DNA of 64,000 bases, taken from the NCBI GenBank assembly GCA_963761305.1, contig CAVXGK010000001.1, positions 1,152,001-1,216,000 on the forward strand, given 5' to 3'. The notes beneath the pieces are model-generated. The model was not told the origin of the DNA. It was given only the letters and a program-made list of their open reading frames with translations, and ran no database searches. Below, piece by piece: positions 1,355 through 28,882 of this stretch. Source of the DNA: an uncultured Gemmatimonadaceae bacterium (GTDB lineage: Bacteria; Gemmatimonadota; Gemmatimonadetes; Gemmatimonadales; Gemmatimonadaceae). The translations under genes were made by a program, and so were the position numbers. Positions within the stretch are counted from its first letter, which is position 1. Each line of letters opens with the position of its first letter.

Positions 1355-2101
1355 TCAACGTCTCGCGTCCCCGGCGCCGCGCTCGGGCAGTGGAATCGGC
1401 TCGGTTCGCGGCTCGCGTCGCTGCTTGATCACGACCCCGACGCCGACGAGCGCGATCAACGCGAACGCGAACCACTGGATGGCGTAGTTCAGATGCGGCC
1501 CCTCGTCGAGCGGCGGCGGAGTGAGGCGCGCCAATCGGTCCGGGGCCACCACCGAATCGCCGAGCATGATCACGTAGACGGGGGCGACGGGATACGGAAG
1601 CGCTCTCCGAACCGCGGCATAGCCGAGCCGCGTGATCACGTTCGGACGCGTCGGCGACATGGTGCCGTCGACCGACGGAAGCTCTTCCACGAAGCCCGCG
1701 AATACGGAATCCCGCTCGCGCCACCTGGCGAGATCGACCGTCTCACCGTCCGGCGCGTAGACCCAGCCGCGATCGACGATCACCGCCGTGTCGCGACCCG
1801 GCACGCGGATCGGCGTCAGGATGTTCACGCCGGGCGATCCCTTGTACGACCGCGATGCGTAGACGAGCTCGTGATCATAGTCGGGCGTCCCGCTGACGTG
1901 CGCGCGCCGAAATCGAAGCGACGCCGAATCGCCGGTGAGCGTCGCGATGTTGGCGTCGGACTGCTCCAGCCGCGACATCACGAGCGCGTTGCGCGCCCGA
2001 CGTTCGGCCAACCGATGAAGCTGCCAGAAGCCCAGCCGAACGAAGATCGCCGCGGAGATGAGGGCGAACGCGACGAACGCCGGAAGACGAAGCGTGTTCA
2101 A
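1355..2101 (-). CDS. SURF1/Shy1 family protein (heme-copper oxidase assembly)
   Basis: LGFWQLHR, VIVDRGWV and HLNYAIQWFAFA motifs; two terminal TM helices; TTG start overlaps the upstream TGA. Confidence 0.93.
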   Translation of the reverse strand: MNTLRLPAFVAFALISAAIFVRLGFWQLHRLAERRARNALVMSRLEQSDANIATLTGDSASLRFRRAHVSGTPDYDHELVYASRSYKGSPGVNILTPIRVPGRDTAVIVDRGWVYAPDGETVDLARWRERDSVFAGFVEELPSVDGTMSPTRPNVITRLGYAAVRRALPYPVAPVYVIMLGDSVVAPDRLARLTPPPLDEGPHLNYAIQWFAFALIALVGVGVVIKQRREPRTEPIPLPERGAGDARR

Positions 2102-3579
2102 CGCACGGTGACGTCGAACACGCCGGTGAGCACGTCGTGGGCGGGTTTTACCTGCACCCACATGCGGTAGCGACCGGATTTCGGGAATTCATATGGAAGC
2201 GTGAACTCGCCGCTCATGGACATGCCGGACATCGGCTCCCGGTTCAGAACGCCGGGCTTGATCCGGCCGTGCGCGGTCGTGTCGCCGGCGTCGCGCGCGC
2301 GAAACACCTGCTGCGCGGTCGTCGACACCGTGCCCATCGGATGCAGATGGATGAAGACCGACTGGTCGTCGCGCACGATCACGGCGTGCGCGGCCATGCC
2401 GAGGTACGGGTTCAACGTCGCGGGGCGCCCAAGCTGGTCGTGAATGCTGAACGCGAGATCGACCGGTGTCTTGGCGACGAGCGACGTCGACGAATTGGAC
2501 AGCGTCATCGTGTAGCCATCGCCGAGCGACGTCGTCGCACCCGCGGCGGTGAGCTCCACGCCCGGCGTGCTCGCCCACGAGTCGTCGCTGTCCGAGGGCG
2601 CGATGGTGCCGAGCATCGCGGGCAGCGTGAGCGTGTCGGTCGCGGTGAGCGCGAGGCCGTTGTCGAGCATGATGTCGGCGAACAAGCGGTAGTTCCCGGC
2701 CGGAAGCCACGGCGCCTGCCCCACGAACACGAGCGAATCCTTTTCGATCGGATGCAGATGCGCGAACACGTCCATGTTCTGCCCGCCGACCAGAAACAGG
2801 TGCATCATCTTGCCGTGATCCGGCGCGACGGGCACGAAGATCGAGCGAAACTCGGCCGTATCGCGCAGCACCACTCTCATCGTGCGGTGTGTCGAGTCGC
2901 TGGTAATGGTGACGTTGGCGATGGGGGGACGGAACATCGTCCGCTGATAGTCGGCGTCGACTGAATTCCACCAACGCGCGCCGCCGAAAAGCAGGACGGC
3001 GAGAACCGGCACCGAGATCGCGGTGATGGCGTTCGCGCGCCGCTTGCGTGCGGCGTCGATCTCCTCGCCGGGAGGTACGAGACTCTCACCCGACGCCGCG
3101 CGCACGATCGTGACGAGACCGGCGACCAACAATCCGGTGAGCGCGAGGAGAATCGTAGCGAGTCCGGGAGAGATTCCGAGGCGGCCGGTGGCGAACGAAT
3201 CCACCGGCACGATTGCCGTGCCGTTTCCACGGCGGCCGTCGACGCGCACGTAGACGCTGTACGACCCGCGCGCCATGAGCCACACCTGCCCACTGTACAG
3301 CCGCGATTGACCGGCGACGCGTGCGATCTTGTCCGGCGACGGCGATCCGGCGACACCAGTTCGCCAGAACACCGACTGAATGCTCACGCTGTCCACGTCG
3401 TCGCTCGCCGTCCGCACGATCACTTCAGCGAGACCGGGCACGACGGACGGGGGTCGCACGATGGCGCGAATCACGTACGGACCCGCCGCGCCGTCGAACG
3501 TGACGTCCGGGCTGCCGACGTGTGCCGACGCGACGACCCACGCCGCGACGGCGAATGCGATTCCCGCCCAACGCTTCAT
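2098..3579 (-). CDS. Membrane-anchored periplasmic His-rich putative copper-binding protein with PmoB-like topology
   Basis: ATG 3579 overlaps upstream TGA (ATGA). Signal peptide MKRWAGIAFAVAAWVVASA, then HVGSPD; beta-rich domain; two TM helices; two beta domains with HGKMMH...AHLHP and MAAH...IHLHP; Met-rich MSGMSMS. Confidence 0.8.
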   Translation of the reverse strand: MKRWAGIAFAVAAWVVASAHVGSPDVTFDGAAGPYVIRAIVRPPSVVPGLAEVIVRTASDDVDSVSIQSVFWRTGVAGSPSPDKIARVAGQSRLYSGQVWLMARGSYSVYVRVDGRRGNGTAIVPVDSFATGRLGISPGLATILLALTGLLVAGLVTIVRAASGESLVPPGEEIDAARKRRANAITAISVPVLAVLLFGGARWWNSVDADYQRTMFRPPIANVTITSDSTHRTMRVVLRDTAEFRSIFVPVAPDHGKMMHLFLVGGQNMDVFAHLHPIEKDSLVFVGQAPWLPAGNYRLFADIMLDNGLALTATDTLTLPAMLGTIAPSDSDDSWASTPGVELTAAGATTSLGDGYTMTLSNSSTSLVAKTPVDLAFSIHDQLGRPATLNPYLGMAAHAVIVRDDQSVFIHLHPMGTVSTTAQQVFRARDAGDTTAHGRIKPGVLNREPMSGMSMSGEFTLPYEFPKSGRYRMWVQVKPAHDVLTGVFDVTVR

Positions 3580-4694
3580 CTGCGGACTCTGGTCATCCAG
3601 CGTCCGCGCGCCAGACCGATGGCGCTCGTGGCGGTGGCGATGCCGACGGCGATCAACATCTGCACCGGAAACGGCCACGATCCGGCCGGCGGCGGATCGA
3701 ACCGGCGAGTCATCGCCTCGTACGACGGCGCCATGAAGTAAACGAAGTTGTCGGCGTTGAAGAGCGGTCCGCGCGCGACGGGATTCGTCACCAGGAACGT
3801 CGCGAACGGCCACTGCACCGCGGTGAATGCCAGCACGAACACGACGCCGACGATCGGCGCCAGCTGGAGCGTGGAGAGCCGTTTGTCGAGACGATGCAGG
3901 ACGAGGTCGACGCAGAATGCCGGCACGATGAGCAGCAGCGGGAACGACAGCGCCACCATGTGCGTGACGTGCTGGTAGATCGGGCCCAGCTTGGGCGTCG
4001 CCGGGAATTGCTCGATCAGCCACATCAGCACGAGCATGATGGCCGTGTAGAACGCCGCGGCGGCGGTGGCCGGCCAACGCAGGTTGATCGCGCGCGCCAT
4101 CGCGCCGATGGCGAGAGGGAAGACGAGCGCCGTCACCTGATAGAAAGACGGGCTGTGCATCATGCGCCGTTCGCTGAACTCGGTGAGAAACAGCGCGGCG
4201 TTCATGATTACCAGGCCGCCCGTCGCGGCGAGCAGCCAGGCGAGACGTCCGCGCGCCTCCGGCGCGGCGCGATTCTGCTGGGCGAGCGTGAGCAGCACGG
4301 CGCCCAGGCAGATCGAGAAAATGCCGAGCGCGAGAACGGCGTGCGGTGGACTCACGATCTTGACGTCGAGGCCGTAGGCATTGTGCCACCAGTTGTCGAA
4401 CGGCGCCGACGTGAGCATCGCGCCGCAGCCCCAGATGCAGAGCCACGCGCCGAGCGGGCCGCGGAAACCCCAGAAGTGCACGGACGCCGCGCGCTCGGCG
4501 TCCGTCCCGGCGAACGTGGTGTGGAGCACGACCCAGCCGGAGCTCAGTCCGGCGAGCAACCCGCCGGCCTGGATCAGCAGGTGGGCGGGCGTCCAGAACG
4601 TGTCCCGCCCGATCGACATGTGCCACGAGATGTCCCAGTACACGCCGGCCATGACGCAGAAGGCGGCGAAGGCGACCGTATAAGCGTGCTTCAT
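3576..4694 (-). CDS. Polytopic membrane protein: PmoC/AmoC-like N-half fused to PmoA/AmoA-like C-half (putative CuMMO-related)
   Basis: 372 aa; WDISWHMSIGRDTFWTPAH and FDNWWHNAYGLDVKIVSPPH; C-half RWPAT..., FPLLLIVPAFCVDLVL, QWPF, GRW resembles PmoA. The CDS is certain; the functional call is inference. Confidence 0.7.
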   Translation of the reverse strand: MKHAYTVAFAAFCVMAGVYWDISWHMSIGRDTFWTPAHLLIQAGGLLAGLSSGWVVLHTTFAGTDAERAASVHFWGFRGPLGAWLCIWGCGAMLTSAPFDNWWHNAYGLDVKIVSPPHAVLALGIFSICLGAVLLTLAQQNRAAPEARGRLAWLLAATGGLVIMNAALFLTEFSERRMMHSPSFYQVTALVFPLAIGAMARAINLRWPATAAAAFYTAIMLVLMWLIEQFPATPKLGPIYQHVTHMVALSFPLLLIVPAFCVDLVLHRLDKRLSTLQLAPIVGVVFVLAFTAVQWPFATFLVTNPVARGPLFNADNFVYFMAPSYEAMTRRFDPPPAGSWPFPVQMLIAVGIATATSAIGLARGRWMTRVRR

Positions 4695-5504
4695 TTAGAA
4701 GAGACTCATCTGTTCGCCGAGCTGCTCGGGTTCCACCGCGGCCTGCCCGAACAGCCGCTGGAGATCCCGCGCTGACTCCGGCGAGTGCCCGGCGAAGTGG
4801 TTGTTGACGTATCCGTAAACCTCGCGACCCTGTTCCGCGTACGGCCAGAGCGCCTGCGTCCACGCCTCGAGCTCGCGCCGCCGGTCGACCTGGATGCGCG
4901 AGTAGTCGACGATGCCCTGGTCCGGCCCCATCCACCTGATGTAGAGAAAATCGGCCGTTGGACGGGTCGCCAACTGCAGCATCTGCTTGCGCGGAATCCA
5001 GCGCCCGTCGCTCAGCGCGAGCGCGACGTGATGCTCGGCGAGCAGCGCGAGCACGCCGTCGTGGATCCAACCCCGCTGGCGGAACTCGACGGCGAACCGG
5101 ATGTCGCGCGGCAGCTTGGGCAGAAACTGGGCGAGGGCCGGCAGCTCGTTTGGCGCGAAGTCCGGTCCGAGTTGAACGAGAACCGGCCCGAGCTTGCGGC
5201 CGAGCTCGCGTGCCCGGTCGACGAACTCATCCATGAGGTCGTCGGCGTTACGGAGCCGATGCTCGTGGGTGATCTCCTGCGGGACCTTGAGGGCGAAAAT
5301 GAAGTCGTCCGGGGTCCGCTCGGCCCAGCCGCGAACCGTTTTGGCGGCCGGCGTGGCATAGAACGTCGAATCGACCTCAACCGTGTCGAAGCCCCGCGCG
5401 TAGACGGTCAAATAGTCGGCGGGGCGAGTACCTTCAGGATAGAAGGGTCCGACCCAGGCGTCGTAGTTCCAGCCTTGTGTCCCTATGCGAATTCTGCCCG
5501 GCAT
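4695..5504 (-). CDS. DUF72 domain protein
   Basis: IRIGTQGWNY, YARGFDTVEVDSTFY, FALKVPQEITH, AVEFRQRGW, YVNNHFAGHSP; its stop abuts the next ATG. Confidence 0.93.
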   Translation of the reverse strand: MPGRIRIGTQGWNYDAWVGPFYPEGTRPADYLTVYARGFDTVEVDSTFYATPAAKTVRGWAERTPDDFIFALKVPQEITHEHRLRNADDLMDEFVDRARELGRKLGPVLVQLGPDFAPNELPALAQFLPKLPRDIRFAVEFRQRGWIHDGVLALLAEHHVALALSDGRWIPRKQMLQLATRPTADFLYIRWMGPDQGIVDYSRIQVDRRRELEAWTQALWPYAEQGREVYGYVNNHFAGHSPESARDLQRLFGQAAVEPEQLGEQMSLF

Positions 5505-5515
5505 ACGAGGAATCG

Positions 5516-5534
5516 GCACGCAAGGAATGCGTGC
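5516..5534. promoter_or_regulatory. Perfect inverted repeat GCACGCA-N5-TGCGTGC just upstream of the DUF72 operon
   Basis: Seen directly, 11 bp from the DUF72 ATG in a divergent intergenic region. Confidence 0.35.
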
Positions 5535-5651
5535 GTCAAGGCGCGAATTCGATTGCGCACGCGACCCGGTTCCGTGATATCGTGAAAGCAGGTAGACGGT
5601 GGAGGGGTGAACGCTTTGACGGCGGGCGCCGCGAGGAGAATCAGGAGCATC

Positions 5652-6215
5652 ATGCACGCGAACGATGAGAACGACAACAGCGGACCGGCAATCGATCGAA
5701 TTGAAGGCGTGTCGGGGGCGCTGGTTGGAGCAGGGATCGGCTCGGCCGCCGGGCCGGTCGGAGCGATCATCGGCAGCGTTGCGGGGGCGATCGGTGGATG
5801 GTGGGCAGGACACGCCATCATCGAGGCGGCGCGGTCGGTGAATCACGAGGACGAGGAGCATTTTCGCGAGCACTACGATTCGCTCGCGGAACGGCCGGCG
5901 GATCGAGCATACGACGACGTGCGCGGCGTGTACTACCTCGGCCAGATCGCCAGCCATCATCCCGATTTCGCGTCCGGCGAGTTCAGGGATCTGGAGGCCG
6001 AGCTCGAGAAGGGCTGGGCGACGCACGGCACCACACACGGCTCATGGGCCAGCATGCGGGATTGCGCGGCGGCCGGTTTCAACCGCGGTCGCGCGAAGCT
6101 CGACGAGATGGCGCGTCACGCGCGAGCCGAGTGGGAGAGCCGTCGCGGCGCTTCGAGCCGGCACGCACGAATGGCGAATGGCTGCCGCTCAGGACACGAA
6201 GATCTGACGCGCTAG
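5652..6215 (+). CDS. Hypothetical glycine-zipper protein
   Basis: AGGAG RBS; GALVGAGIGSAAGPVGAIIGSVAGAIGG glycine zipper followed by a helical domain. Confidence 0.75.
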   Translation: MHANDENDNSGPAIDRIEGVSGALVGAGIGSAAGPVGAIIGSVAGAIGGWWAGHAIIEAARSVNHEDEEHFREHYDSLAERPADRAYDDVRGVYYLGQIASHHPDFASGEFRDLEAELEKGWATHGTTHGSWASMRDCAAAGFNRGRAKLDEMARHARAEWESRRGASSRHARMANGCRSGHEDLTR

Positions 6216-6860
6216 CACCGGGCCGATCGATCGGTTCGAACGGCCTACGCGCAATGTGATCGGGCCGTCGAAGGGCGCCCGCGACACGACCTCGACGCGC
6301 GTGCCGGGGACGATCCCCAGCTCGGCCAAGTATCTGAGCTGTCCCGGATCGCGGTCGCCGACGCGCTCGACGCGAACGCGCCGGCCTTCGTCGACGTCGG
6401 CCAGGCTCGCCAGCGACTGTTCGCGAAGGATGCCCTCGCGGGTCGGAATCGGCGCGCCGTGCGGATCGGTCGTCGGCTCGCCGATCGCGGCGGCCATCCG
6501 ATCGATCAGCTCGTCCGACGCGGCATGCTCGAGACGCTCGGCCTCCTGGTGCACTCGGTCCCAGGGGTAGTCGAGCGCTTGCGTGAGATACGCTTCGATC
6601 ACGCGATGCCGGCGAATCGTGCGGAGCGCGGCGCGTCGGCCGTCGCGCGTGAGACGCACGCCGCGATAGCGCTCGTGCGTGATGAGGCGCTGGCCGGCCA
6701 GTCGTCGCACCATGCCGCTCACCGAGGCCGGGGCGACACCCAATTCAGCGGCGATCTCGTTGGTACCGGCCGGCTCGCCCGCGCTCTCGAGCTCGAAGAT
6801 CACCTTCAGGTAGTCTTCGGCCGGTGCGGTGAGCGGCTGGCTCGCGCGCACGGCGGTCAC
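6189..6860 (-). CDS. DtxR/MntR family metal-dependent repressor with C-terminal FeoA domain
   Basis: EDYLKVIF, RRHRVIEAYL, VHQEAERLEH, DPHGAPIP, LAELGIVPGT; GTG overlaps the USP stop. Confidence 0.95.
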   Translation of the reverse strand: MTAVRASQPLTAPAEDYLKVIFELESAGEPAGTNEIAAELGVAPASVSGMVRRLAGQRLITHERYRGVRLTRDGRRAALRTIRRHRVIEAYLTQALDYPWDRVHQEAERLEHAASDELIDRMAAAIGEPTTDPHGAPIPTREGILREQSLASLADVDEGRRVRVERVGDRDPGQLRYLAELGIVPGTRVEVVSRAPFDGPITLRVGRSNRSIGPVLARQIFVS

Positions 6861-7327
6861 AGCGGCTTCTCTGGTGGAGCGATCGGGTTCTCGCGCGGCG
6901 TTCGGCGTTCGCCGCGCACGAGCAGCACGGGCACGCGTGAGCGGTGACGTACTTCGTTCGCCACGCTGCCGTAGATGATGTCCTTGATGAATCGATGGCC
7001 GTGCGTCGACATCGCGATCAGGTCGCACGACTCGCGCGCCGCGGCGGCCGAGATCTCGCTCGCCGGATCGCCCGCGGCGAGGACGCAGTCGGCGGGCAGC
7101 CCGCTCGCGTTCAGGGCGGCGCACTGAGCCTCGATGTACTCGCGGTCCAGCCGCATCTCTTCCGATTCGCGCAGATGGAGCTGCTTCACGTTGCGCGCGG
7201 CCCATCCGTCGGCGACGTGGATGAGCACGAGCGACGCACCGCAGAACCGCGCCAGCGCGGACACGTGCTCGAGAATCGCCGAGTCGTAGTCGGAGTGCTC
7301 GAGCGGAACGAGGATGCGCTTGTACAT
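6857..7327 (-). CDS. Universal stress protein
   Basis: MYKRILVPL...LIAMSTHGH...YGSVANEVRHRSRVPVLLV; TGATG coupling to mntH. Confidence 0.93.
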   Translation of the reverse strand: MYKRILVPLEHSDYDSAILEHVSALARFCGASLVLIHVADGWAARNVKQLHLRESEEMRLDREYIEAQCAALNASGLPADCVLAAGDPASEISAAAARESCDLIAMSTHGHRFIKDIIYGSVANEVRHRSRVPVLLVRGERRTPRENPIAPPEKPL

Positions 7328-8718
7328 CAGCCGATCCCCATCCACCCGCGCACGGTTTGCGCGAGCAGCCACGCGTTCAGCGCCGCGATCGTGAGGGCGG
7401 TCGTCCACGCGACGACTTTGAGCCACGACGCGTTCACGAACGCGCCCATCTTGGCGCGATCGGACGTGAACGAGACGAGCGGAAAGACGGCGAACGAGAG
7501 CTGCAGGCTCAGAATCACCTGGCTGAGGATGAGCAACCGTGCGGTGCCGCTGGCGCCGTAGAAAATGGCGACGATGGCGGCCGGGACAATGGCGATCGCG
7601 CGCGTGATCAGCCGGCGCAGCCAGGGACGCAGCCGGATGTTGAGGAAGCCCTCCATCACGATCTGGCCGGCGAGCGTACCGGTGAGGGTCGAGTTCTGTC
7701 CCGACGCCAGGAGCGCCAGCGCGAACGCCGTGCTCGCGCCGGCGCCGAGGAGCGGCGTGAGCAGCTTGTACGCGTCCTGGATTTCGGCGACCTCGGCGTG
7801 GCCCGACGTATGGAACGTGGCCGCGGCCACGACGAGAATGGCCGCGTTGACGAAGAAGGCGAAGCTCAGCGCGATCGTCGAATCGAGAAACGCGAAGCGC
7901 ACCGCTTCGCGCCGCCCTTCGCTCGTCTCGGCGTAGCGCCGCGTCTGCACGATCGACGAATGCAGATAGAGGTTGTGCGGCATGACGGTCGCGCCGAGGA
8001 TGCCGATGGCGATGTAGAGCATCTCGGGGTCGCGGATGATGGCGGTGCTCGGCACGAACCCCTTCGCCAGTTGGCCGACGTTCGGATGCGCCAGAATGAT
8101 CTCGAACATGAAGCACAGGCCGACCGACGCAATGAGCGTGATCACCAGCGCCTCGAGCACGCGCACGCCACGATTCTGGAGCGCGAGCAGCAGCAGCACG
8201 TCGAAGCCGGTGACGAGCACGCCCACGACGATCGGCAGATGAAACAGCAGATTGAGCGCGATCGCCGAGCCGATGACTTCGGCGAGATCGCACGCGGCGA
8301 TGGCGATCTCGCAGAGGATCCAGAGCGCGGTGGCCGTGGGCTTCGAGTAGTGATCGCGGCAGGCCTGCGCGAGATCTCGGCCCGTCACGATGCCGAGCTT
8401 GGAGGCGAGCCCCTGGAGCAGCACGGCCATGATGTTCGACAGGAGCACGACACTCAGAAGCGTGTAGCCGAAGCGCGACCCGCCGGCGAGGTCGGTGGCC
8501 CAGTTGCCGGGATCCATGTACCCGACGGCGACGAGATACCCGGGTCCGGCGAACGCGAGGAGCTTGCCGAAGAACGAACGCGCGTCGATGGGGACGCTGC
8601 GGTAGACCTCCTGGAGGCTTGGCGCGACGCGCGAACGACGCCAGCCCTGCTCGGAATCGGAGTCCGGGGGCGGCTGATCGTCCTGTGGATCGGGGCGTAG
8701 GAGGCGAGGGAGAACCAA
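7327..8718 (-). CDS. mntH: Nramp family Mn2+/Fe2+ transporter
   Basis: [35 protein letters not shown]. Confidence 0.97.
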
Positions 8719-8741
8719 AGTGTTAGTCTGGAGACAATCAG

Positions 8742-8761
8742 AAGTTAGTTCACACTAACTT
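8742..8761. promoter_or_regulatory. Putative DtxR/MntR operator AAGTTAGT-TCAC-ACTAACTT
   Basis: Perfect 8-bp AT-rich inverted repeat with TTAG...CTAA core upstream of the mntH-usp-dtxR operon. Confidence 0.7.
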
Positions 8762-8799
8762 TCTGGCAAGGGAGATCCGGTGCGTGATGTCCCCGTCTG

Positions 8800-8990
8800 C
8801 TACCTCTCGGGCAGCTCTCGAATCCATCGGTCGATTCCGTCGGCCACGCGCGGGTCCGTCTCGCCTGGGTACCCGAACGCGTCCGGGACCGTAACCTCGG
8901 GCGGCACGACCTTGAACATGTGCGTCACGTCGGGCACAAAGAGGTAGGTAGTCTGCGCGCCGCTGCCGGGGCGCGCGCGCAATGCGTCGC
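8800..8990 (-). pseudogene. Probable C-terminal remnant of an alpha/beta hydrolase
   Basis: TYLFVPDVTHMFK...DPRVADGIDRWI resembles the catalytic-His strand and final helix; no N-terminal part is present. Confidence 0.4.
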
Positions 8991-9011
8991 GCGACGGCGA
9001 ACGCGGCTGGA

Positions 9012-9446
9012 CTATCCGGCGCGAACAACCCTCTCCAGAACCGGAAGAGCGTTCGATAGCGCGGAGCGCTCCGACTTCGACAGCGCGGCGAGCGAAGCGG
9101 CGAGCGTAGCGACGCGGCGTCGGCGGCCCGCGTGGAGCAGCTTGATCCCCTGTGGCGTGGCGGCGACGCGCGAGATGCGGCCGTCCGTCGGGTCCGACGC
9201 ACGCTCCACGAGGCCCGCCGCCTCGAGTTTGTCGACCAAACGCGTGATCGTCGGCGGCCGGACCTGCTCGGCGGTCGCCAAGGCGCCGAGCGTGAGCGGG
9301 CCGCCGAAGACGATCACCGAGAGCGCCGACAACTGCGGCGCGGGGAGGCCGGAGGCATCGTCTTCCCGGCGGAGACGGCGCAGGAGATGGATCGCCGAAG
9401 AGTGGAGCCGGTCGGCGAGGTCGTGGGTCGACGCGGTGCTTGTCAT
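9012..9446 (-). CDS. MarR family transcriptional regulator
   Basis: PTITRLVDKLEAAGLVER..DPTDGR winged-helix motif. Confidence 0.93.
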   Translation of the reverse strand: MTSTASTHDLADRLHSSAIHLLRRLRREDDASGLPAPQLSALSVIVFGGPLTLGALATAEQVRPPTITRLVDKLEAAGLVERASDPTDGRISRVAATPQGIKLLHAGRRRRVATLAASLAALSKSERSALSNALPVLERVVRAG

Positions 9447-9488
9447 TAGCTCGGCTAAGTATTATGATCGATCGTTAGCTGAACTAAC
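9446..9488. promoter_or_regulatory. Two TTAG-N5-CTAA palindromes (putative MarR operators)
   Basis: TTAGC-TCG-GCTAA (9446-9458) and GTTAG-CTGAA-CTAAC (9474-9488) between divergent marR and VOC genes. Confidence 0.7.
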
Positions 9489-9545
9489 TAATTACGCAGG
9501 CTGCCCGGCGGCAAGATCGGGCGGCGTTCACCGGAGGGTTCGACC

Positions 9546-9923
9546 GTGGCAAACCTCGCCAAATCCCGCATCGGCCAGATCGCCGTCGTCTGCAAGAACG
9601 TCGCGCGCGCCTCCACATTCTATCGCGACGTGCTCGGGCTCCCACACCTGTTCGACGCGGGGCCGAATCTGTCGTTCTTCAACTGCGGCGGAACACGACT
9701 CATGCTGACCACGGCGGAGCGGCCGCAAGACGACCACCTCAGCTCGATTCTCTATTACTTCGTCGAGAACATCGAGGGGGTCCAGAGTGAACTGGAGAGC
9801 AAGGGCGTGCATTTCACCAACGCGGCGCACCTGGTCGCGAAGATGCCGGACCACGAGCTGTGGCTCTCTGAGTTCAGCGACTCCGAAGGCAACGCGCTGG
9901 CGCTGATGGAAGAAAAGCGATAG
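9546..9923 (+). CDS. VOC/glyoxalase family protein
   Basis: IGQIAV, FYRDVLGL, FSDSEGNALALME; GGAGG RBS. Confidence 0.92.
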   Translation: MANLAKSRIGQIAVVCKNVARASTFYRDVLGLPHLFDAGPNLSFFNCGGTRLMLTTAERPQDDHLSSILYYFVENIEGVQSELESKGVHFTNAAHLVAKMPDHELWLSEFSDSEGNALALMEEKR

Positions 9924-9932
9924 GCGCGTTGC

Positions 9933-10589
9933 TCACTTCCCGGCCAAACAGATCCCCACTTTGAACGGTGGCAGCCCCGCGTCCTCTCGCCGCATGTCCG
10001 CGTGCGCCGAGTCTTCCATCGGCGCCAGCTCGACCTTGCCGTGGGCGCCGACCTTGAATTGCGTGCCGTAGATCTGCTTGCGGCCCCAGACGAGCCGCAT
10101 GCGATCCTCGAACGTCGCGACATCGGCCGCCGGCGATTCGGACGGGCCCGCTTCCATCATGCGATGCAGCACATTGCGCGCGAGGCCCGTGTCGCTCTGT
10201 GAGAGCAGATACACCGCGTGCACGCCCGCCGCGCCGACGACGCTGCGCGTCGGCCACGTGCTCCCGCGCTGCGCGGCCAGCGCCTTGAGCTGCGCCGTCA
10301 TCTGCGCGGCCGTCGCACCGAGCGCCGGTTCCCTGCCCTCCACCTGCACGCCGAGTTGCACCGGCGCCGCGAGCGCGGATCCGAGACCGGCGGCCCGCAA
10401 CAGCGCCGTGCGGAGCGTGTCGTCGCTCCAATCGTGCTTGGAGTCGTCGAAGAACTCGGCTTGTCGCTGCACCCACGCGTCGCCGGGCTTCCAATTGCAC
10501 TCCTGCGCCGACGTCCTGGCCGATATGGACTGGGCGCTCGCGGCGAGCGGCGCGAGAGCGAGCGCGGCGAGTGGGAGCATGCGGTTCAT
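9933..10589 (-). CDS. Secreted protein, DUF6624-like
   Basis: Signal peptide; C-terminal EDRMRLVWGRKQIYGTQF...PMED..ADMRREDAGLPP. Confidence 0.7.
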   Translation of the reverse strand: MNRMLPLAALALAPLAASAQSISARTSAQECNWKPGDAWVQRQAEFFDDSKHDWSDDTLRTALLRAAGLGSALAAPVQLGVQVEGREPALGATAAQMTAQLKALAAQRGSTWPTRSVVGAAGVHAVYLLSQSDTGLARNVLHRMMEAGPSESPAADVATFEDRMRLVWGRKQIYGTQFKVGAHGKVELAPMEDSAHADMRREDAGLPPFKVGICLAGK

Positions 10590-23420: not shown

Positions 23421-26400
23421 GTGCCGATCGCATCGCTCCACGCCGCCGCCGAGCTGCTCACCGCGGCCGACTCTCCGACCGGACTCGCCGCCGTCGCGCG
23501 TTCGATTGGTTGTGACGGCGATCCCGCGCCACTCGACCTCGACACGCAACGCGGCCTCGGCCTGGACGACGCCATCGTCGACGCGAGCGTGGCCACCGGC
23601 GCGGGCGCCCTGCGCGCACTCCTGCTCACGGTGCGCGACGACGTCTCGATCCGCGAGGTTTTACCACGCCTCGCGGGCCGGCTCGCCACGCGCGCGGCGC
23701 ACGTGCTCTGGATCGTCGTCGCGTCCCAGCGGTCGCGGGGCGACGTCGCGATCGCCGCGTGGGCGGGAGATCGCCGCCCCCCGCGCGTCGCCGCGATCGT
23801 CGTCGATCGCCGGCATCCGGTGGACAGCGACGCCGAAACGTTGCGCGCCCTGTCGGTTGCGGCGGGCGAGCGCGACGTGCTCACGCACGCACGGTGGGTC
23901 GAGGTGCTCGGCCGTGATTCGCTCACGGCTCGCTTCTATCGCGCGCTGGAACGTGCCGTCTCGACCATCGCCACATCGTCGGCCGTGGGTAGAGACGCAC
24001 AACGGCGCGACGCGGCGCTGCTCGACACGTCGCGACTCGTCTTCCTCTCGTTCCTGGAGGCCAAGGGCTGGCTCGACGGCGACCGCGGCTTCCTCGTCCG
24101 CCACTTCGAGCGTTGCATGGCGCACGGCGGCCGGTTTCGCGACCGCGTGCTCCGTCCGCTGTTCTTCGGCACGCTCAACACGCCGTTCAGTCGGCGCGCA
24201 TCAACTGCCCGGGCGTTCGGTCGCATTCCTTTCCTCAACGGCGGTCTCTTCGCACGAACGCCGATCGAGCGGGCCCTTCGCGGCCTGGCGTTTTCGGACG
24301 ACGCGTTCGGCGCGTTGATCTTCGACGTCTTCGCGCAATACCGCTTCACTGCGCGCGAGGAGACGACAACGTGGACCGAAGCGGCCGTCGATCCCGAGAT
24401 GCTCGGCCGCGCCTTTGAATCGCTGATGGCGCCCGCCGAGCGGCGGCGCACCGGCGCATTCTTCACGCCGTTCTCGCTCGTGGAGCGCGTCTCGGCGTCG
24501 GCACTCGCGGCGGCGCTCGGCGACGACGGCGCGCGGGCGCTCGCCGGCGAGCCGTTGCGCCCGGCGAGAGCACGCGTGGTTCTCGAGTCACTCGACCGGC
24601 TCACGGTGCTCGACCCGGCGTGCGGTTCCGGCGCGTTTCTCGTCCACGCGCTCGAGCGGATCGCGTCACTGCGTTCCTCGCTCGGCGATGGCCGCGACGT
24701 CAGCTCGATTCGCCGCGACGTGCTCACGCGCTCGATCTTCGGCGTCGACGTCAATCCGACCGCGGTATGGCTGTGCGAGTTGCGTCTCTGGCTCTCGGTG
24801 GTGATCGAGAGCGAGGTGAACGATCCGGTCGCCGTCACGCCGCTGCCGAACCTCGACCGCAACGTGCGCACAGGCGACGCGTTGTCCGGCCGCGCGTTCG
24901 GATCGCCCGACGTGCCTCGCGGCGACGCCGCCCACCTTCGAACGCTTCGCGAGCGGTACGCGCGAGCGACGGGACGTCGCAAGGCATCGTGCCTGCGACA
25001 GCTCGAGCGCGCCGAGCGTGCGTACACGGTCGCGGCGATCGGAGGGGAGTTGCGCGCCGTGGCGGCAAAACGCCGCGACGTTCTCGTCGCGCGCCGGGGC
25101 CGCGATCTGTTCGGCGAGCGATATCAGCCCACGCGCGACGAGCTGAACGCCGCCGCGGCGCTCAGATCGGTTGCGAAGGCACTTCGTGCATCGCGACGGC
25201 GTATTCTCGACGGCGGCGCGCTGCCGTTCGCGTTCCCGACGCACTTCGCCGACGTCGAAGCGCGCGGCGGCTTCGGCATCATCGTCGGCAACCCCCCGTG
25301 GGTGCGCGCGCATCGCGTTCCCCAGTCGCAGCGCGCGATCTATCGCCGCGACTACGACGTCGCGCGGGCGGCGGCGTGGGAGCCGGGCGCCGCTGCCGCC
25401 GGCGCGGGCCGAGGATTCGCTGCTCAGGTAGACGTCGCGGCGCTGTTCGTCGAACGGTCGCTCCGGTTGCTCGCCCCCGGTGGCACGATGGCGCTCCTGC
25501 TTCCCGTGAAGCTCTGGCGGTCCCTCGCCGGCGGAGGCGTACGCCGATTTCTCGCCGATGGCGCGCGCATCGTGCGCGTCGAGGACCACGCGCGAGCGTC
25601 GGGCACATTCGACGCTGCCGTCTACCCGTCACTCCTCGTCGCGCAGCGACGCGTCGACGACTCGGCTCGCGCAAAGAACGCGATGCTCGTCGAAGCGTCG
25701 GTGCACGACAACGCGACGACCGGCATCGCGTGGCGACTTCCGGCGCACGACCTTCCGTTCGACGCCAGCCGCGGCGCACCGTGGCTTCTGCTTCCACCCG
25801 ACGCGCGACGCGGATTCGACCGACTCCGCGAGCTCGGCCGGCCGCTCGCCGAGTCGGAGCTCGGCCGGCCACGACTCGGCGTGAAGTGCGGATGCAACGA
25901 CGCATTCGTGGTCGAGATTCTCGGCTCCGACGAAGACCTCGTCGACGTGCTCACGATGGATCGCAAGCGCGTGACCATCGACCGCACGATGCTGCGGCCG
26001 TTGCTCAAGGGCGAGCGTCTCCGCCGTTGGACGGTGCCGCCGTCTGTCGACGCGATCATCTGGACGCACGACATGCACGGCAGCGCGCTGCGATCGTTGC
26101 CCACTCGAACCGAGCGTTGGCTCTCCGGCTGGCGTCGACAGCTCGCCGCTCGCTCCGACGCCCGCGATCACGCGCCGTGGTGGTCGCTCTTTCGCACCGA
26201 GGCAGCGGCCACCGAACGCGCTCGCGTCGTGTGGGGCGATGTCGGACGCGAGCCGCGCGCGTCGGTTCTGTTGTCGGGCGACACGCGCGTGCCGCTCAAC
26301 ACCTGCTATGTCGTGCGCTGCCCGGACGCGAGTGACGCCTTCGCGCTCGCCGCGCTGCTCAACGGGCCGCTCGCGCGTTCGTGGCTCGACGCGCTGGCGG

Positions 26401-26621
26401 AGCCGGCGCGCGGCGGGTATCGGCGCTACCTCGGTTGGACGATGTCTCTGCTTCCGATTCCATACGAGTGGCAACGTGCGCGCGATGTCCTCGCCCCGCT
26501 CGGCGAGTCCGGCGCGTGCGGCCGCCCGCCGAGCGACCAGGAATTGTTAGACGCGTCGCTGACGGCCTATGGTGCGGACCGGCGCGCAACGGCGGCGCTC
26601 GTCGCGTGGACCGGCCTGTGA
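23421..26621 (+). CDS. Large N6-adenine DNA methyltransferase (Eco57I/TaqI-like)
   Basis: GAFFTP, motif I VLDPACGSGAFL, motif IV IVGNPPW, PFLNGGLF, VDPEMLGRAFE; C-terminal TaqI-like target-recognition region. Confidence 0.92.
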   Translation: MPIASLHAAAELLTAADSPTGLAAVARSIGCDGDPAPLDLDTQRGLGLDDAIVDASVATGAGALRALLLTVRDDVSIREVLPRLAGRLATRAAHVLWIVVASQRSRGDVAIAAWAGDRRPPRVAAIVVDRRHPVDSDAETLRALSVAAGERDVLTHARWVEVLGRDSLTARFYRALERAVSTIATSSAVGRDAQRRDAALLDTSRLVFLSFLEAKGWLDGDRGFLVRHFERCMAHGGRFRDRVLRPLFFGTLNTPFSRRASTARAFGRIPFLNGGLFARTPIERALRGLAFSDDAFGALIFDVFAQYRFTAREETTTWTEAAVDPEMLGRAFESLMAPAERRRTGAFFTPFSLVERVSASALAAALGDDGARALAGEPLRPARARVVLESLDRLTVLDPACGSGAFLVHALERIASLRSSLGDGRDVSSIRRDVLTRSIFGVDVNPTAVWLCELRLWLSVVIESEVNDPVAVTPLPNLDRNVRTGDALSGRAFGSPDVPRGDAAHLRTLRERYARATGRRKASCLRQLERAERAYTVAAIGGELRAVAAKRRDVLVARRGRDLFGERYQPTRDELNAAAALRSVAKALRASRRRILDGGALPFAFPTHFADVEARGGFGIIVGNPPWVRAHRVPQSQRAIYRRDYDVARAAAWEPGAAAAGAGRGFAAQVDVAALFVERSLRLLAPGGTMALLLPVKLWRSLAGGGVRRFLADGARIVRVEDHARASGTFDAAVYPSLLVAQRRVDDSARAKNAMLVEASVHDNATTGIAWRLPAHDLPFDASRGAPWLLLPPDARRGFDRLRELGRPLAESELGRPRLGVKCGCNDAFVVEILGSDEDLVDVLTMDRKRVTIDRTMLRPLLKGERLRRWTVPPSVDAIIWTHDMHGSALRSLPTRTERWLSGWRRQLAARSDARDHAPWWSLFRTEAAATERARVVWGDVGREPRASVLLSGDTRVPLNTCYVVRCPDASDAFALAALLNGPLARSWLDALAEPARGGYRRYLGWTMSLLPIPYEWQRARDVLAPLGESGACGRPPSDQELLDASLTAYGADRRATAALVAWTGL

Positions 26622-28882
26622 CCGGATTTCATCGCCTGCCCGCCGATGACGTTCGCCGACTGATCGCCACGAGAATGCTCGGCGGGCGAGAGAGCGGTGC
26701 CTCGCGAACGCTCGGCCGGATCACGCTTCGGTCTCATCAGCTCGACGCCGCAGGCCGGCTCATCGCGATGATCGAGCGCGACGGAGGCGCGATGCTCGCC
26801 GAGCCGGTTGGACTCGGCAAGACGTACACCGCGCTCGCCGTCGCCGCGCGCCTCGGAGTCCGGCGAATCGTCGTCGCGATTCCGGCCGCGCTTCGCGAGA
26901 TGTGGCTCGCCGCGATGCGCGAGTGCGACGTGGACGCCTCGCTCGTCACGCACGAGGCGCTGAGTCGATCCGCGTCGTCGATAGTCGAGCCCGAGCTGGT
27001 GATCGTCGACGAGGCGCATCGACTGCGAAATCCGGGTACGAAGCGCTATTCGTCCGTCGCCGATCTCTGCGCGCGAGCGCGCGTTCTACTCGTGACCGCC
27101 ACGCCGGTGCAGAACGCGCGCGACGACCTCGCCGCGCAGCTCGCGTTGTTCCTCGGCCGTGAAGCGTGGGCGCTGAGCGACACGGAGATCGCGCGCTACG
27201 TCGTGCGCGGAGTCCGCGCCGACGCCGGCGAGATGCCACGCCTCGACGGTCCTCACGTCGTGCCGCTCGCGAGCGATGACGATTGCGTCGACGCGCTGCT
27301 CGCATTGCCGCCGCCGGCTCCAGCCAAGGATGAATCGACGGCGGCCGCCCTGCTCCTCTACGGCCTGGTGCACCAATGGACGTCGAGCCGCGCCGCGCTG
27401 GTCGCTGCGCTCGAGCGACGCTTGGCGCGCGGAGTCGCGCTGACGAGCGTTCTCGAGACAGGCCGCTATCCGACGCGCGCCGAGTTGGCCGCGTGGACGT
27501 GGTCCGGCGACGCGCTGCAGCTCGCGTTCCCGGAAATCATGACGCGTGCGACGACGACGGACAACGAGGACGTCGCCGGCTTGCTCGGTGCGGTGCACGC
27601 GCATCAGACCGCCATCGCGTCGCTCGTCGAGCGTCTTCGTCGCGAACCGGATCCTGACGACGCTCGGGCCGCGGCCATCCGGGAGATACGCCGCCGTCAC
27701 ACGCGCGAGCGAATCATCGCGTTTTGTCACTACGCCGAGACAGTGCGCGCGTTCTGGGCGCGGCTCGGTCGCGACGCGGGAGTCGCCGCGCTGACCTCGT
27801 CCGGCGCACGCGTGGCAAGCGGTCGCATCAGCCGAGCGTCGGTCCTCGAGCAATTCACGCCGCGAGCGGGCGGCGGAGACACGCCGCCCGCCGAGCGAAT
27901 CGACCTGCTCATCACCACCGACGTGTTGAGTGAAGGCTTGAACCTGCACGCGGCGTCGGTGGTCGTGCACCTCGACTATCCGTGGAACCCGGCGCGCTTG
28001 GATCAGCGTGTCGGCCGCGTGCGGCGCTTGGGTTCGCGACACGGCACGGTGACGGTGTACGCGCTCGCGCCGCCCGCATCCGGTGAGCGGCTGTTGCGGA
28101 TCGACGAACGGTTGCGCGACAAGCTGCGCGTCGCGGAGCGAACGATCGGCGTCGCCGGTCACATCCTTCCGTCTCTCGTCACGCCGGCGGTCGACCACCG
28201 CGGGAGCGCCGAAGCGGCGAGCGACGTGCGGGCCTCGCTTCGGTGTTGGCTCGACCACGGCTCGAGCATGCCGGCGCGCGCGACCGAAAGCGACGGTGAG
28301 CCCGCGGTCGCCGCCGTCGAGAGTGACGTTGCCGGCCTGCTCGCGCTGATCGTCAAAGGCAACGATTTCCAGCTGGTCGCCGACGTGGGACGCGGCCTAA
28401 ACGCCTCGCCGGCGACGATTCACGCGGCGCTTGGCGCCGCGCGCGGGCCGTCGGGCCGCGTCGACGACGCGGAGATCGGCGACGGCATTCAGCGACTGCA
28501 GCGCTGGCTCGGAGCGCGCTTCGGCGCATCGACCGTCGATCTGCCTTCGGCCACCGCCTCTCCCGCTCGGCGCGTCGCCCTCGCACGCGTGGCGCGCGCG
28601 TTGTCGCGCGCCCCCCGCCATCGACGCGCGCTCCTTGCGCCGCTGGTCCACGCGGCGCGATCGGTGGCCGTCGCGCCGCTCGCCGAAGGCGCGGAGCGCG
28701 TGCTCGACTCGCTCGTCGAATCCGACCTCCCCGACGAAGCATGGCTGCGGTCGATCGCGGCGTTTGGTGAATTGAACGTTCGGCCCGAGTCGGCGCGTCG
28801 CCACGGCACGGAGCGGGGTCGCGTCGTCGCCATGCTTCTTCTCGTCGTGCGGTCGTCTGACCGACCGGACTCGAGGGCGTGA
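26618..28882 (+). CDS. SNF2-like superfamily 2 helicase
   Basis: EPVGLGKT, DEAH, TATP, TDVLSEGLNL, PWNPARLDQRVGRVRR; GTG overlaps the MTase TGA. Confidence 0.92.
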   Translation: MTGFHRLPADDVRRLIATRMLGGRESGASRTLGRITLRSHQLDAAGRLIAMIERDGGAMLAEPVGLGKTYTALAVAARLGVRRIVVAIPAALREMWLAAMRECDVDASLVTHEALSRSASSIVEPELVIVDEAHRLRNPGTKRYSSVADLCARARVLLVTATPVQNARDDLAAQLALFLGREAWALSDTEIARYVVRGVRADAGEMPRLDGPHVVPLASDDDCVDALLALPPPAPAKDESTAAALLLYGLVHQWTSSRAALVAALERRLARGVALTSVLETGRYPTRAELAAWTWSGDALQLAFPEIMTRATTTDNEDVAGLLGAVHAHQTAIASLVERLRREPDPDDARAAAIREIRRRHTRERIIAFCHYAETVRAFWARLGRDAGVAALTSSGARVASGRISRASVLEQFTPRAGGGDTPPAERIDLLITTDVLSEGLNLHAASVVVHLDYPWNPARLDQRVGRVRRLGSRHGTVTVYALAPPASGERLLRIDERLRDKLRVAERTIGVAGHILPSLVTPAVDHRGSAEAASDVRASLRCWLDHGSSMPARATESDGEPAVAAVESDVAGLLALIVKGNDFQLVADVGRGLNASPATIHAALGAARGPSGRVDDAEIGDGIQRLQRWLGARFGASTVDLPSATASPARRVALARVARALSRAPRHRRALLAPLVHAARSVAVAPLAEGAERVLDSLVESDLPDEAWLRSIAAFGELNVRPESARRHGTERGRVVAMLLLVVRSSDRPDSRA

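Follow-up and report, generated by a model that had tools for sequence, protein, structure and literature searches.

A widespread and unannotated gene pair with probable kinship to the copper membrane monooxygenases

In a 64,000-nt stretch of the genome, 93% complete, of a soil Gemmatimonadaceae bacterium (here called the window, whose positions are used as coordinates), we analyzed two adjacent genes, A and B, which an original prediction made from the letters alone had described as a divergent relative of the copper membrane monooxygenases (CuMMOs), the group that includes particulate methane monooxygenase (pMMO) and ammonia monooxygenase (AMO). Gene A encodes a protein in which the core of PmoC is joined to a PmoA-like domain, and we consider it very probable that this protein is homologous to CuMMO subunits C and A. 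Gene B encodes an exported partner that accompanies A across phyla. We tentatively propose that A and its obligate partner B make up a copper-loaded membrane oxidoreductase, predicted to be a distant, two-gene branch of the CuMMOs. The fusion of C- and A-like parts, the co-occurrence of A and B and the lack of annotation have held up; a role for the neighboring SURF1 gene and a whole PmoC have not, and B is PmoB-like only in topology and in its mature N-terminal His.

The N-terminal half of A is related to the last part of PmoC. When A residues 1–142 were compared by hhalign with 39 PmoC/AmoC sequences, A 13–119 aligned with PmoC 113–219 over 94 columns (probability 82%, E = 9.9e-6), with a score of 45 vs at most 22 in control comparisons, whose E-values were 0.041 or higher. 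The alignment retains all eight positions of the CuC and CuD ligands, pairing the CuC-type motif of A with PmoC D129, H133 and H146 and the CuD-type motif with N200, H204, E210 and H218. The ligands assigned in AMO are D136, H140, D146 and H153 for CuC, a spacing identical to that in A, and N207, H211, E218 and H225 for CuD (PMC13058606). The CuD-type set is kept by position with its chemistry altered, Asn and Glu each being replaced by Asp in A. Among 53 homologs, D21, H38 and D100 are invariant, and H25, D31, H104, D110 and H118 are each conserved at 90% or more. In the AlphaFold2 (AF2) model of A (pLDDT 95.9, pTM 0.93), the four conserved His all lie at one end of the bundle beside Asp, which is the PmoC pattern. 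A heme-binding, b561-like bundle was considered and set aside because the conserved His all sit on one membrane face and do not form a two-level bis-His arrangement. AmoC is the most common weak Pfam match of the A family (11 of 53 members, best E = 0.0011), and the AmoC model PF04896 matches the A gene of one other genome (G002) at E = 0.004; the A protein studied here has no match to it at E ≤ 1, and the gathering score was not reached. PmoC was not listed in fold searches with the whole A model, in which each entry appears once and the PmoA match dominates.

The C-terminal half of A has the fold of PmoA. In the fold search with the A model, PmoA/AmoA entries occupied ranks 1–12, separated from the rest by a gap of 3 Z units, with PmoA covered end to end. 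By hhalign, with controls, A matched a PmoA profile at E = 7e-4 and a probability of 25–27%, a profile that is thin, being built from the four usable PmoA sequences, all from metagenome loci. Pfam returned no match of A to PF02461 (AMO). The predicted C-plus-A fusion of 372 aa is thus borne out for the PmoC core and the PmoA fold, by hhalign and the fold search, respectively, and fails for a complete PmoC, since A contains no more than its last four helices. Separate xmoC, xmoA and xmoB genes are not found, because the C core and the A part share one 372-aa chain and there are two genes in total. At G090:C123:1071-2220, A falls into two reading frames that join at profile positions 162–165, the boundary between the PmoC-like and PmoA-like parts; this is either a frameshift or a natural split.

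Gene B resembles PmoB in layout. Its AF2 model (pLDDT 91.3) has a first-domain beta sandwich spanning residues 26–128, and in all 76 homologs of B the hydrophobic leader ends right before the sequence H-(V/I/L)-(G/N)-(S/T), whose His corresponds to His20, invariant in 45 aligned sequences and present in 76/76 homologs. An HxHP motif occurs twice in the protein. The topology and the mature N-terminal His fit the predicted PmoB-like character, and no sequence or fold match to PmoB turned up: hhalign gave a probability of 0.4% against PmoB, no PF04744 match was obtained, and PmoB was absent from the top 50 fold matches of the whole 493-residue model among 48,161 chains. Foldseek with B returned only tandem Ig/FnIII proteins, with TM scores below 0.27. 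The hhalign comparison pairs a single part of B, residues 408–422 (VFIHLHPMG, in the region of window 2341–2355), with YHIHPMF of PmoB, a stretch too short to carry weight. No Pfam family was found for whole B or for any of its three domains taken singly, and the DUF1775 and CopC models gave no match above threshold for B or for its first domain alone. Weak Pfam matches among B homologs were to YtkA (5 of 45) and CopC (3 of 45). The fold matches nearest to the N-terminal domain include the copper proteins CrdA and CopC, and CrdA was also the lone sequence match, itself at chance level; PDB sequences searched with B singly likewise gave chance-level matches only.

As had been expected of standard annotation, both genes fall among hypothetical proteins. 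Neither A nor B matches Pfam or NCBIfam, and A, searched singly and as a profile, had no match to PDB sequences at E ≤ 10. Their relatives (among the 90% clusters, 7976 of the 8000 candidates scored with A, and 1300 with B) are all named hypothetical, as are the nearest ESM Atlas clusters, which are unnamed protein sets from Gemmatimonadota/Acidobacteriota. The nearest relatives of both proteins are named as Gemmatimonadaceae by their sources. The family is large: a library clustered at 50% identity contains 1954 representatives of A with E ≤ 1e-3, and when each species was represented by a single genome, at least 593 species-level genomes carried A, distributed over Gemmatimonadota, Acidobacteriota, Verrucomicrobiota, Binatota, Methylomirabilota, Thermodesulfobacteriota, Eisenbacteria and Thermomicrobiales. 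Numerous database relatives of A, 277–297 aa in length, begin exactly at query residue 93, which is a conserved Met preceding the second motif; these are probably gene calls from an internal Met on truncated contigs.

The pairing of A with B is far beyond chance and extends across phyla. Among 80 loci taken from other genomes, 76 have B immediately after A. Three of the other four end at or just past A; the fourth, L051, is the sole B-less locus with room for B, and there (6001–6900) the A match halts at residue 309 and tblastn finds no B. Among 121 sampled Gemmatimonadota genomes, 27 carry A and 25 carry B, every B sharing a contig with A, and A occurs alone twice, once as a gene carrying an in-frame stop and once as a fragment at a contig end; the pair is absent from the remaining 94. 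One genome, G117, holds a second A–B pair (L101, G117:C2:91500-100500, at 2732–6843), on the same strand and 4.7 kb apart, with a GMC oxidoreductase, an unknown 331-aa open reading frame (ORF) and a C92 amidase-like protein between A and B. L071 also has a GMC oxidoreductase, located upstream of A; the remaining 79 loci have none there. The genome studied here contains no canonical pmo or amo genes (PF04896 gave nothing at E ≤ 10); the original prediction had noted no methanotrophy or nitrification genes in the window. Among sequencing runs, no RNA dataset is listed as a carrier, and those listed are DNA contigs of soil metagenomes with small shares. Full-text searches of literature outside subscription journals found no paper that describes a PmoC–PmoA fusion family or PmoC-like proteins outside the CuMMOs.

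Our preference for an oxidoreductase rests on the studied relatives, all of which are oxidoreductases, and on the strong conservation of both site sets and of the PmoA-like domain; that A–B is an enzyme at all, as opposed to a metal-handling device, we put at slightly less than even odds. In such an enzyme, the His1 domain and the HxH domains of B would bind copper in the periplasm, by analogy with the N-terminal-His domains of YcnI, CopC, PmoB and the anglerases, and B would load or support the two Asp/His/His sites, located where helices 1–4 of A end on the periplasmic side. These sites may activate O2, as has been proposed for CuC and CuD of pMMO and AMO, with electrons perhaps drawn from the quinol pool. 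The predicted substrate is likely a small or lipid-soluble compound, which would be oxidized. A more specific version, in which A–B works as a minimal copper membrane monooxygenase of two subunits and has ammonia, some trace gas or a compound soluble in membranes as its substrate, we regard as rather unlikely.

Alternatively, A–B may be a device for capturing and relaying or transporting copper, in which the N-terminal His of B captures periplasmic copper, the HxH/Met domains pass it on, and the two Asp/His/His sites of A either retain the metal or shift it through or inside the membrane, to supply cuproenzymes or for detoxification. This is somewhat unlikely but deserves serious weight, and it ranks close behind the oxidoreductase because of two observations: the module is self-contained, lacking metabolic neighbors, and B has chaperone-like features. 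In favor of a relay are the invariant mature His1 with W100/M102, two His-rich domains, the proximity in fold of CrdA and CopC to the N-terminal domain, the lone CrdA sequence match and the weak YtkA and CopC matches. There are also precedents: PMC12537917 describes N-terminal-His Ig domains tethered to membrane permeases, with Cu binding at 60–70 nM and essentially no oxidase activity, and PMC8424229 describes YcnI as a copper chaperone. However, no copper transporter is known on a PmoC/PmoA scaffold, the characterized relatives of these folds all being monooxygenases, and a relay leaves retention of the whole PmoA-like domain without explanation. Copper-related genes are also scarce nearby, with one Cu/Zn superoxide dismutase and one CusB/HlyD-type protein among 131 otherwise mixed ORFs that flank the pair at some 60 other loci.

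It is less probable that A–B, although of that ancestry, is a membrane metalloprotein that works with a different metal (Fe, Zn or Mn) or acts as a sensor or redox partner in place of an oxygenase or copper carrier. Sets of two His and one carboxylate also bind Fe(II) and Zn, a review notes that the pMMO/AMO sites have been assigned Cu, Zn and Fe alike (PMC13058606), the CuD Asn is Asp in A, the N-terminal bundle resembles the di-heme cytochrome b561 in fold, and the window has a Mn/Fe cluster of Nramp/DtxR type 1.5 kb upstream. On the other hand, the placement of the His of A at one bundle end next to Asp differs from the two-level bis-His of b561, the N-terminal His of B with its Met and Trp suggests copper, and the Nramp cluster did not recur when neighbors were clustered. 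We find it very improbable that A is a helical membrane protein with no CuMMO kinship, its PmoA resemblance and PmoC-like motifs having arisen by convergence, since two independent signals stand side by side in C-then-A order, 8/8 ligand positions match with their spacing, and PmoA/AmoA entries fill the top 12 fold ranks with the 3-Z gap and end-to-end cover, in addition to the hhalign controls.

SURF1/Shy1 (PF02104) is a heme a insertion factor of cytochrome c oxidase, and the gene downstream of B is a clear member (110 bits vs a cut-off of 23.4). The least probable explanation makes A–B a heme-copper oxidase assembly factor acting with SURF1: the three genes overlap or abut here and in nine close relatives, and SURF1 is single-copy in the genome, but COX1 is on another contig, no cox, Sco or PCuAC gene occurs among the 131 flanking ORFs elsewhere, the pair is missing from most of the sampled Gemmatimonadota genomes, and relatives lacking A and B retain the SURF1 synteny or parts of it. 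SURF1 directly follows B in 9 of 80 loci and lies about 1.6 kb after it in three more, all 12 in one Gemmatimonadaceae clade that also has DUF72 and an acyl-CoA dehydrogenase (ACAD) gene in common. DUF72 precedes A in 14 of the 80 loci, every one of them from close Gemmatimonadaceae. When 457 flanking ORFs were clustered, the only recurrent families were DUF72 (12), ACAD (12) and SURF1 (9), from that one clade, and no neighbor was conserved family-wide. Five genomes of the same family without A and B have DUF72-SURF1-ACAD (L097), DUF72-SURF1 (L100), SURF1-ACAD (L096 and L098) or, within 1.5 kb, SURF1 alone (L099). Because these relatives keep the arrangement or parts of it, A–B has either been inserted into an older DUF72-SURF1-ACAD synteny or been lost from it. 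SURF1 is thus a lineage-specific neighbor outside the A–B module, its coupling here reflecting packing and not partnership, and the idea that it belongs to the system is abandoned; DUF72 is a neighbor of A through shared synteny only. In three Gemmatimonadaceae loci, a MEDS-domain histidine kinase lies between B and SURF1 (L014 at 8617–10092 on the minus strand, L022 and L031). A histidine kinase as a recurrent partner, suggested by a nine-locus cluster, was rejected, as the cluster was linked by generic kinase domains and adjacency was inconsistent.

In the window, DUF72, A, B and SURF1 form four tightly packed minus-strand genes (Table 1), and ACAD follows SURF1. The TAA of DUF72 directly abuts the ATG of A, the A stop and B start share an ATGA (CGC AGA TGA AGC), and the B stop lies inside a TTGA (GTG CGT TGA ACA) whose TTG at 2101 is in the SURF1 frame, making it one of two in-frame start candidates along with the GTG at 2161. 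The coordinates agree with the three coupled genes and the ATGA and TTGA overlaps noted earlier, to which DUF72 is added as a fourth, previously unlisted member. A Mn/Fe uptake cluster (6189–8718, minus strand) lies just upstream of the block. Elsewhere in the window (23421–28882, plus strand), an Eco57I/MmeI-type methylase-endonuclease of 1066 aa is followed by an SNF2/ResIII helicase of 833 aa, which looks like a restriction or defense module.

Table 1. Features of the A–B locus and its surroundings, in window positions.
Feature	Position	Strand	Evidence
SURF1 gene, 268 aa (GTG) or 248 aa (TTG start at 2101)	1355-2161	-	PF02104, E 2.2e-31
Gene B, 493 aa, exported bitopic partner of A	2098-3579	-	ORF, AF2 model
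B third beta domain, invariant M395, H398, H411, H413 (GMAAHA ... FIHLHPMG)	2101-2580	-	–
B second beta domain, invariant H255, H260, H274, H276, P277 (DHGKMMHLF ... FAHLHP)	2620-2922	-	alignment, AF2
B transmembrane hairpin, helices 138-163 and 176-213, RKRR loop, invariant W203, W204	2941-3168	-	AF2, alignment
B N-terminal beta sandwich, invariant His20 (mature residue 1), W100, M102	3190-3522	-	alignment, AF2
B signal peptide, residues 1-19, predicted cleavage after ASA	3523-3579	-	N-terminal helix 2-17 (AF2)
Gene A, 372 aa, ten-helix membrane protein, fusion of PmoC core and PmoA fold	3576-4694	-	ORF, AF2 model
A residues 143-372, PmoA/AmoA-like fold	3579-4268	-	fold search
A residues 1-142, bundle of four helices, homologous to the last four of PmoC/AmoC	4269-4694	-	hhalign
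CuD-type motif D100-x3-H104-x5-D110-x7-H118 (FDNWWHNAYGLDVKIVSPPH)	4341-4397	-	conservation, PmoC alignment
CuC-type motif D21-x3-H25-x5-D31-x6-H38 (WDISWHMSIGRDTFWTPAH)	4581-4634	-	conservation, PmoC alignment
DUF72 gene	4695-5534	-	PF01904, E 1.5e-63
DtxR/MntR-type repressor with FeoA domain	6189-7205	-	window protein scan
Universal stress protein	6857-7330	-	window protein scan
Nramp/MntH transporter	7327-8718	-	window protein scan

pMMO and AMO govern methane and nitrogen fluxes, their active site is debated, and they are difficult to express. A large unannotated family from ordinary heterotrophs, in which the two candidate copper sites are kept on a fused scaffold of smaller size, would offer a handle on CuMMO mechanism and origin, and it may conceal an unrecognized oxidation or copper-handling process in soils. 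Should A–B prove to be a two-subunit monooxygenase, it would be present in hundreds of non-methanotrophic, non-nitrifying soil species from at least eight phyla, and it would represent a living relative of the pMMO/AMO ancestor and a simpler system for deciding which of CuC and CuD forms the active site.

Compared with known systems, A shares with PmoC/AmoC (PF04896) both ligand sets in position and spacing, including the RDT and TPxH motifs, but it has only the last four helices, leaving about 110 N-terminal PmoC residues without counterpart, and its core is fused to the next domain and has no Pfam match above cut-off. Its second half differs from PmoA/AmoA (PF02461; PDB 4phz_B, 7s4h_B and 9cl6_B) in sequence, with identities of 10–19%, and in sharing one chain with the C-like core. 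SURF1/Shy1, although unmistakable in the window, is a clade-specific neighbor and no component of A–B. Like PmoB/AmoB (PF04744), B is encoded directly after the C/A gene and has a signal peptide, a mature N-terminal His, an exported beta domain, two transmembrane helices and further exported beta domain(s); unlike them, it has three beta domains, with HxH in the second and third, away from the N-terminal His in sequence. B also resembles YcnI (DUF1775), CopC, Helicobacter pylori CrdA and the anglerases Ang-1/Ang-2, which are membrane-tethered and have an exported Ig-like domain with a conserved His as mature residue 1 (PMC8424229; PMC12537917). In contrast to these YcnI/CopC-type proteins, B is partnered not with CopD or HupE/UreJ but with a PmoC/PmoA-like protein.

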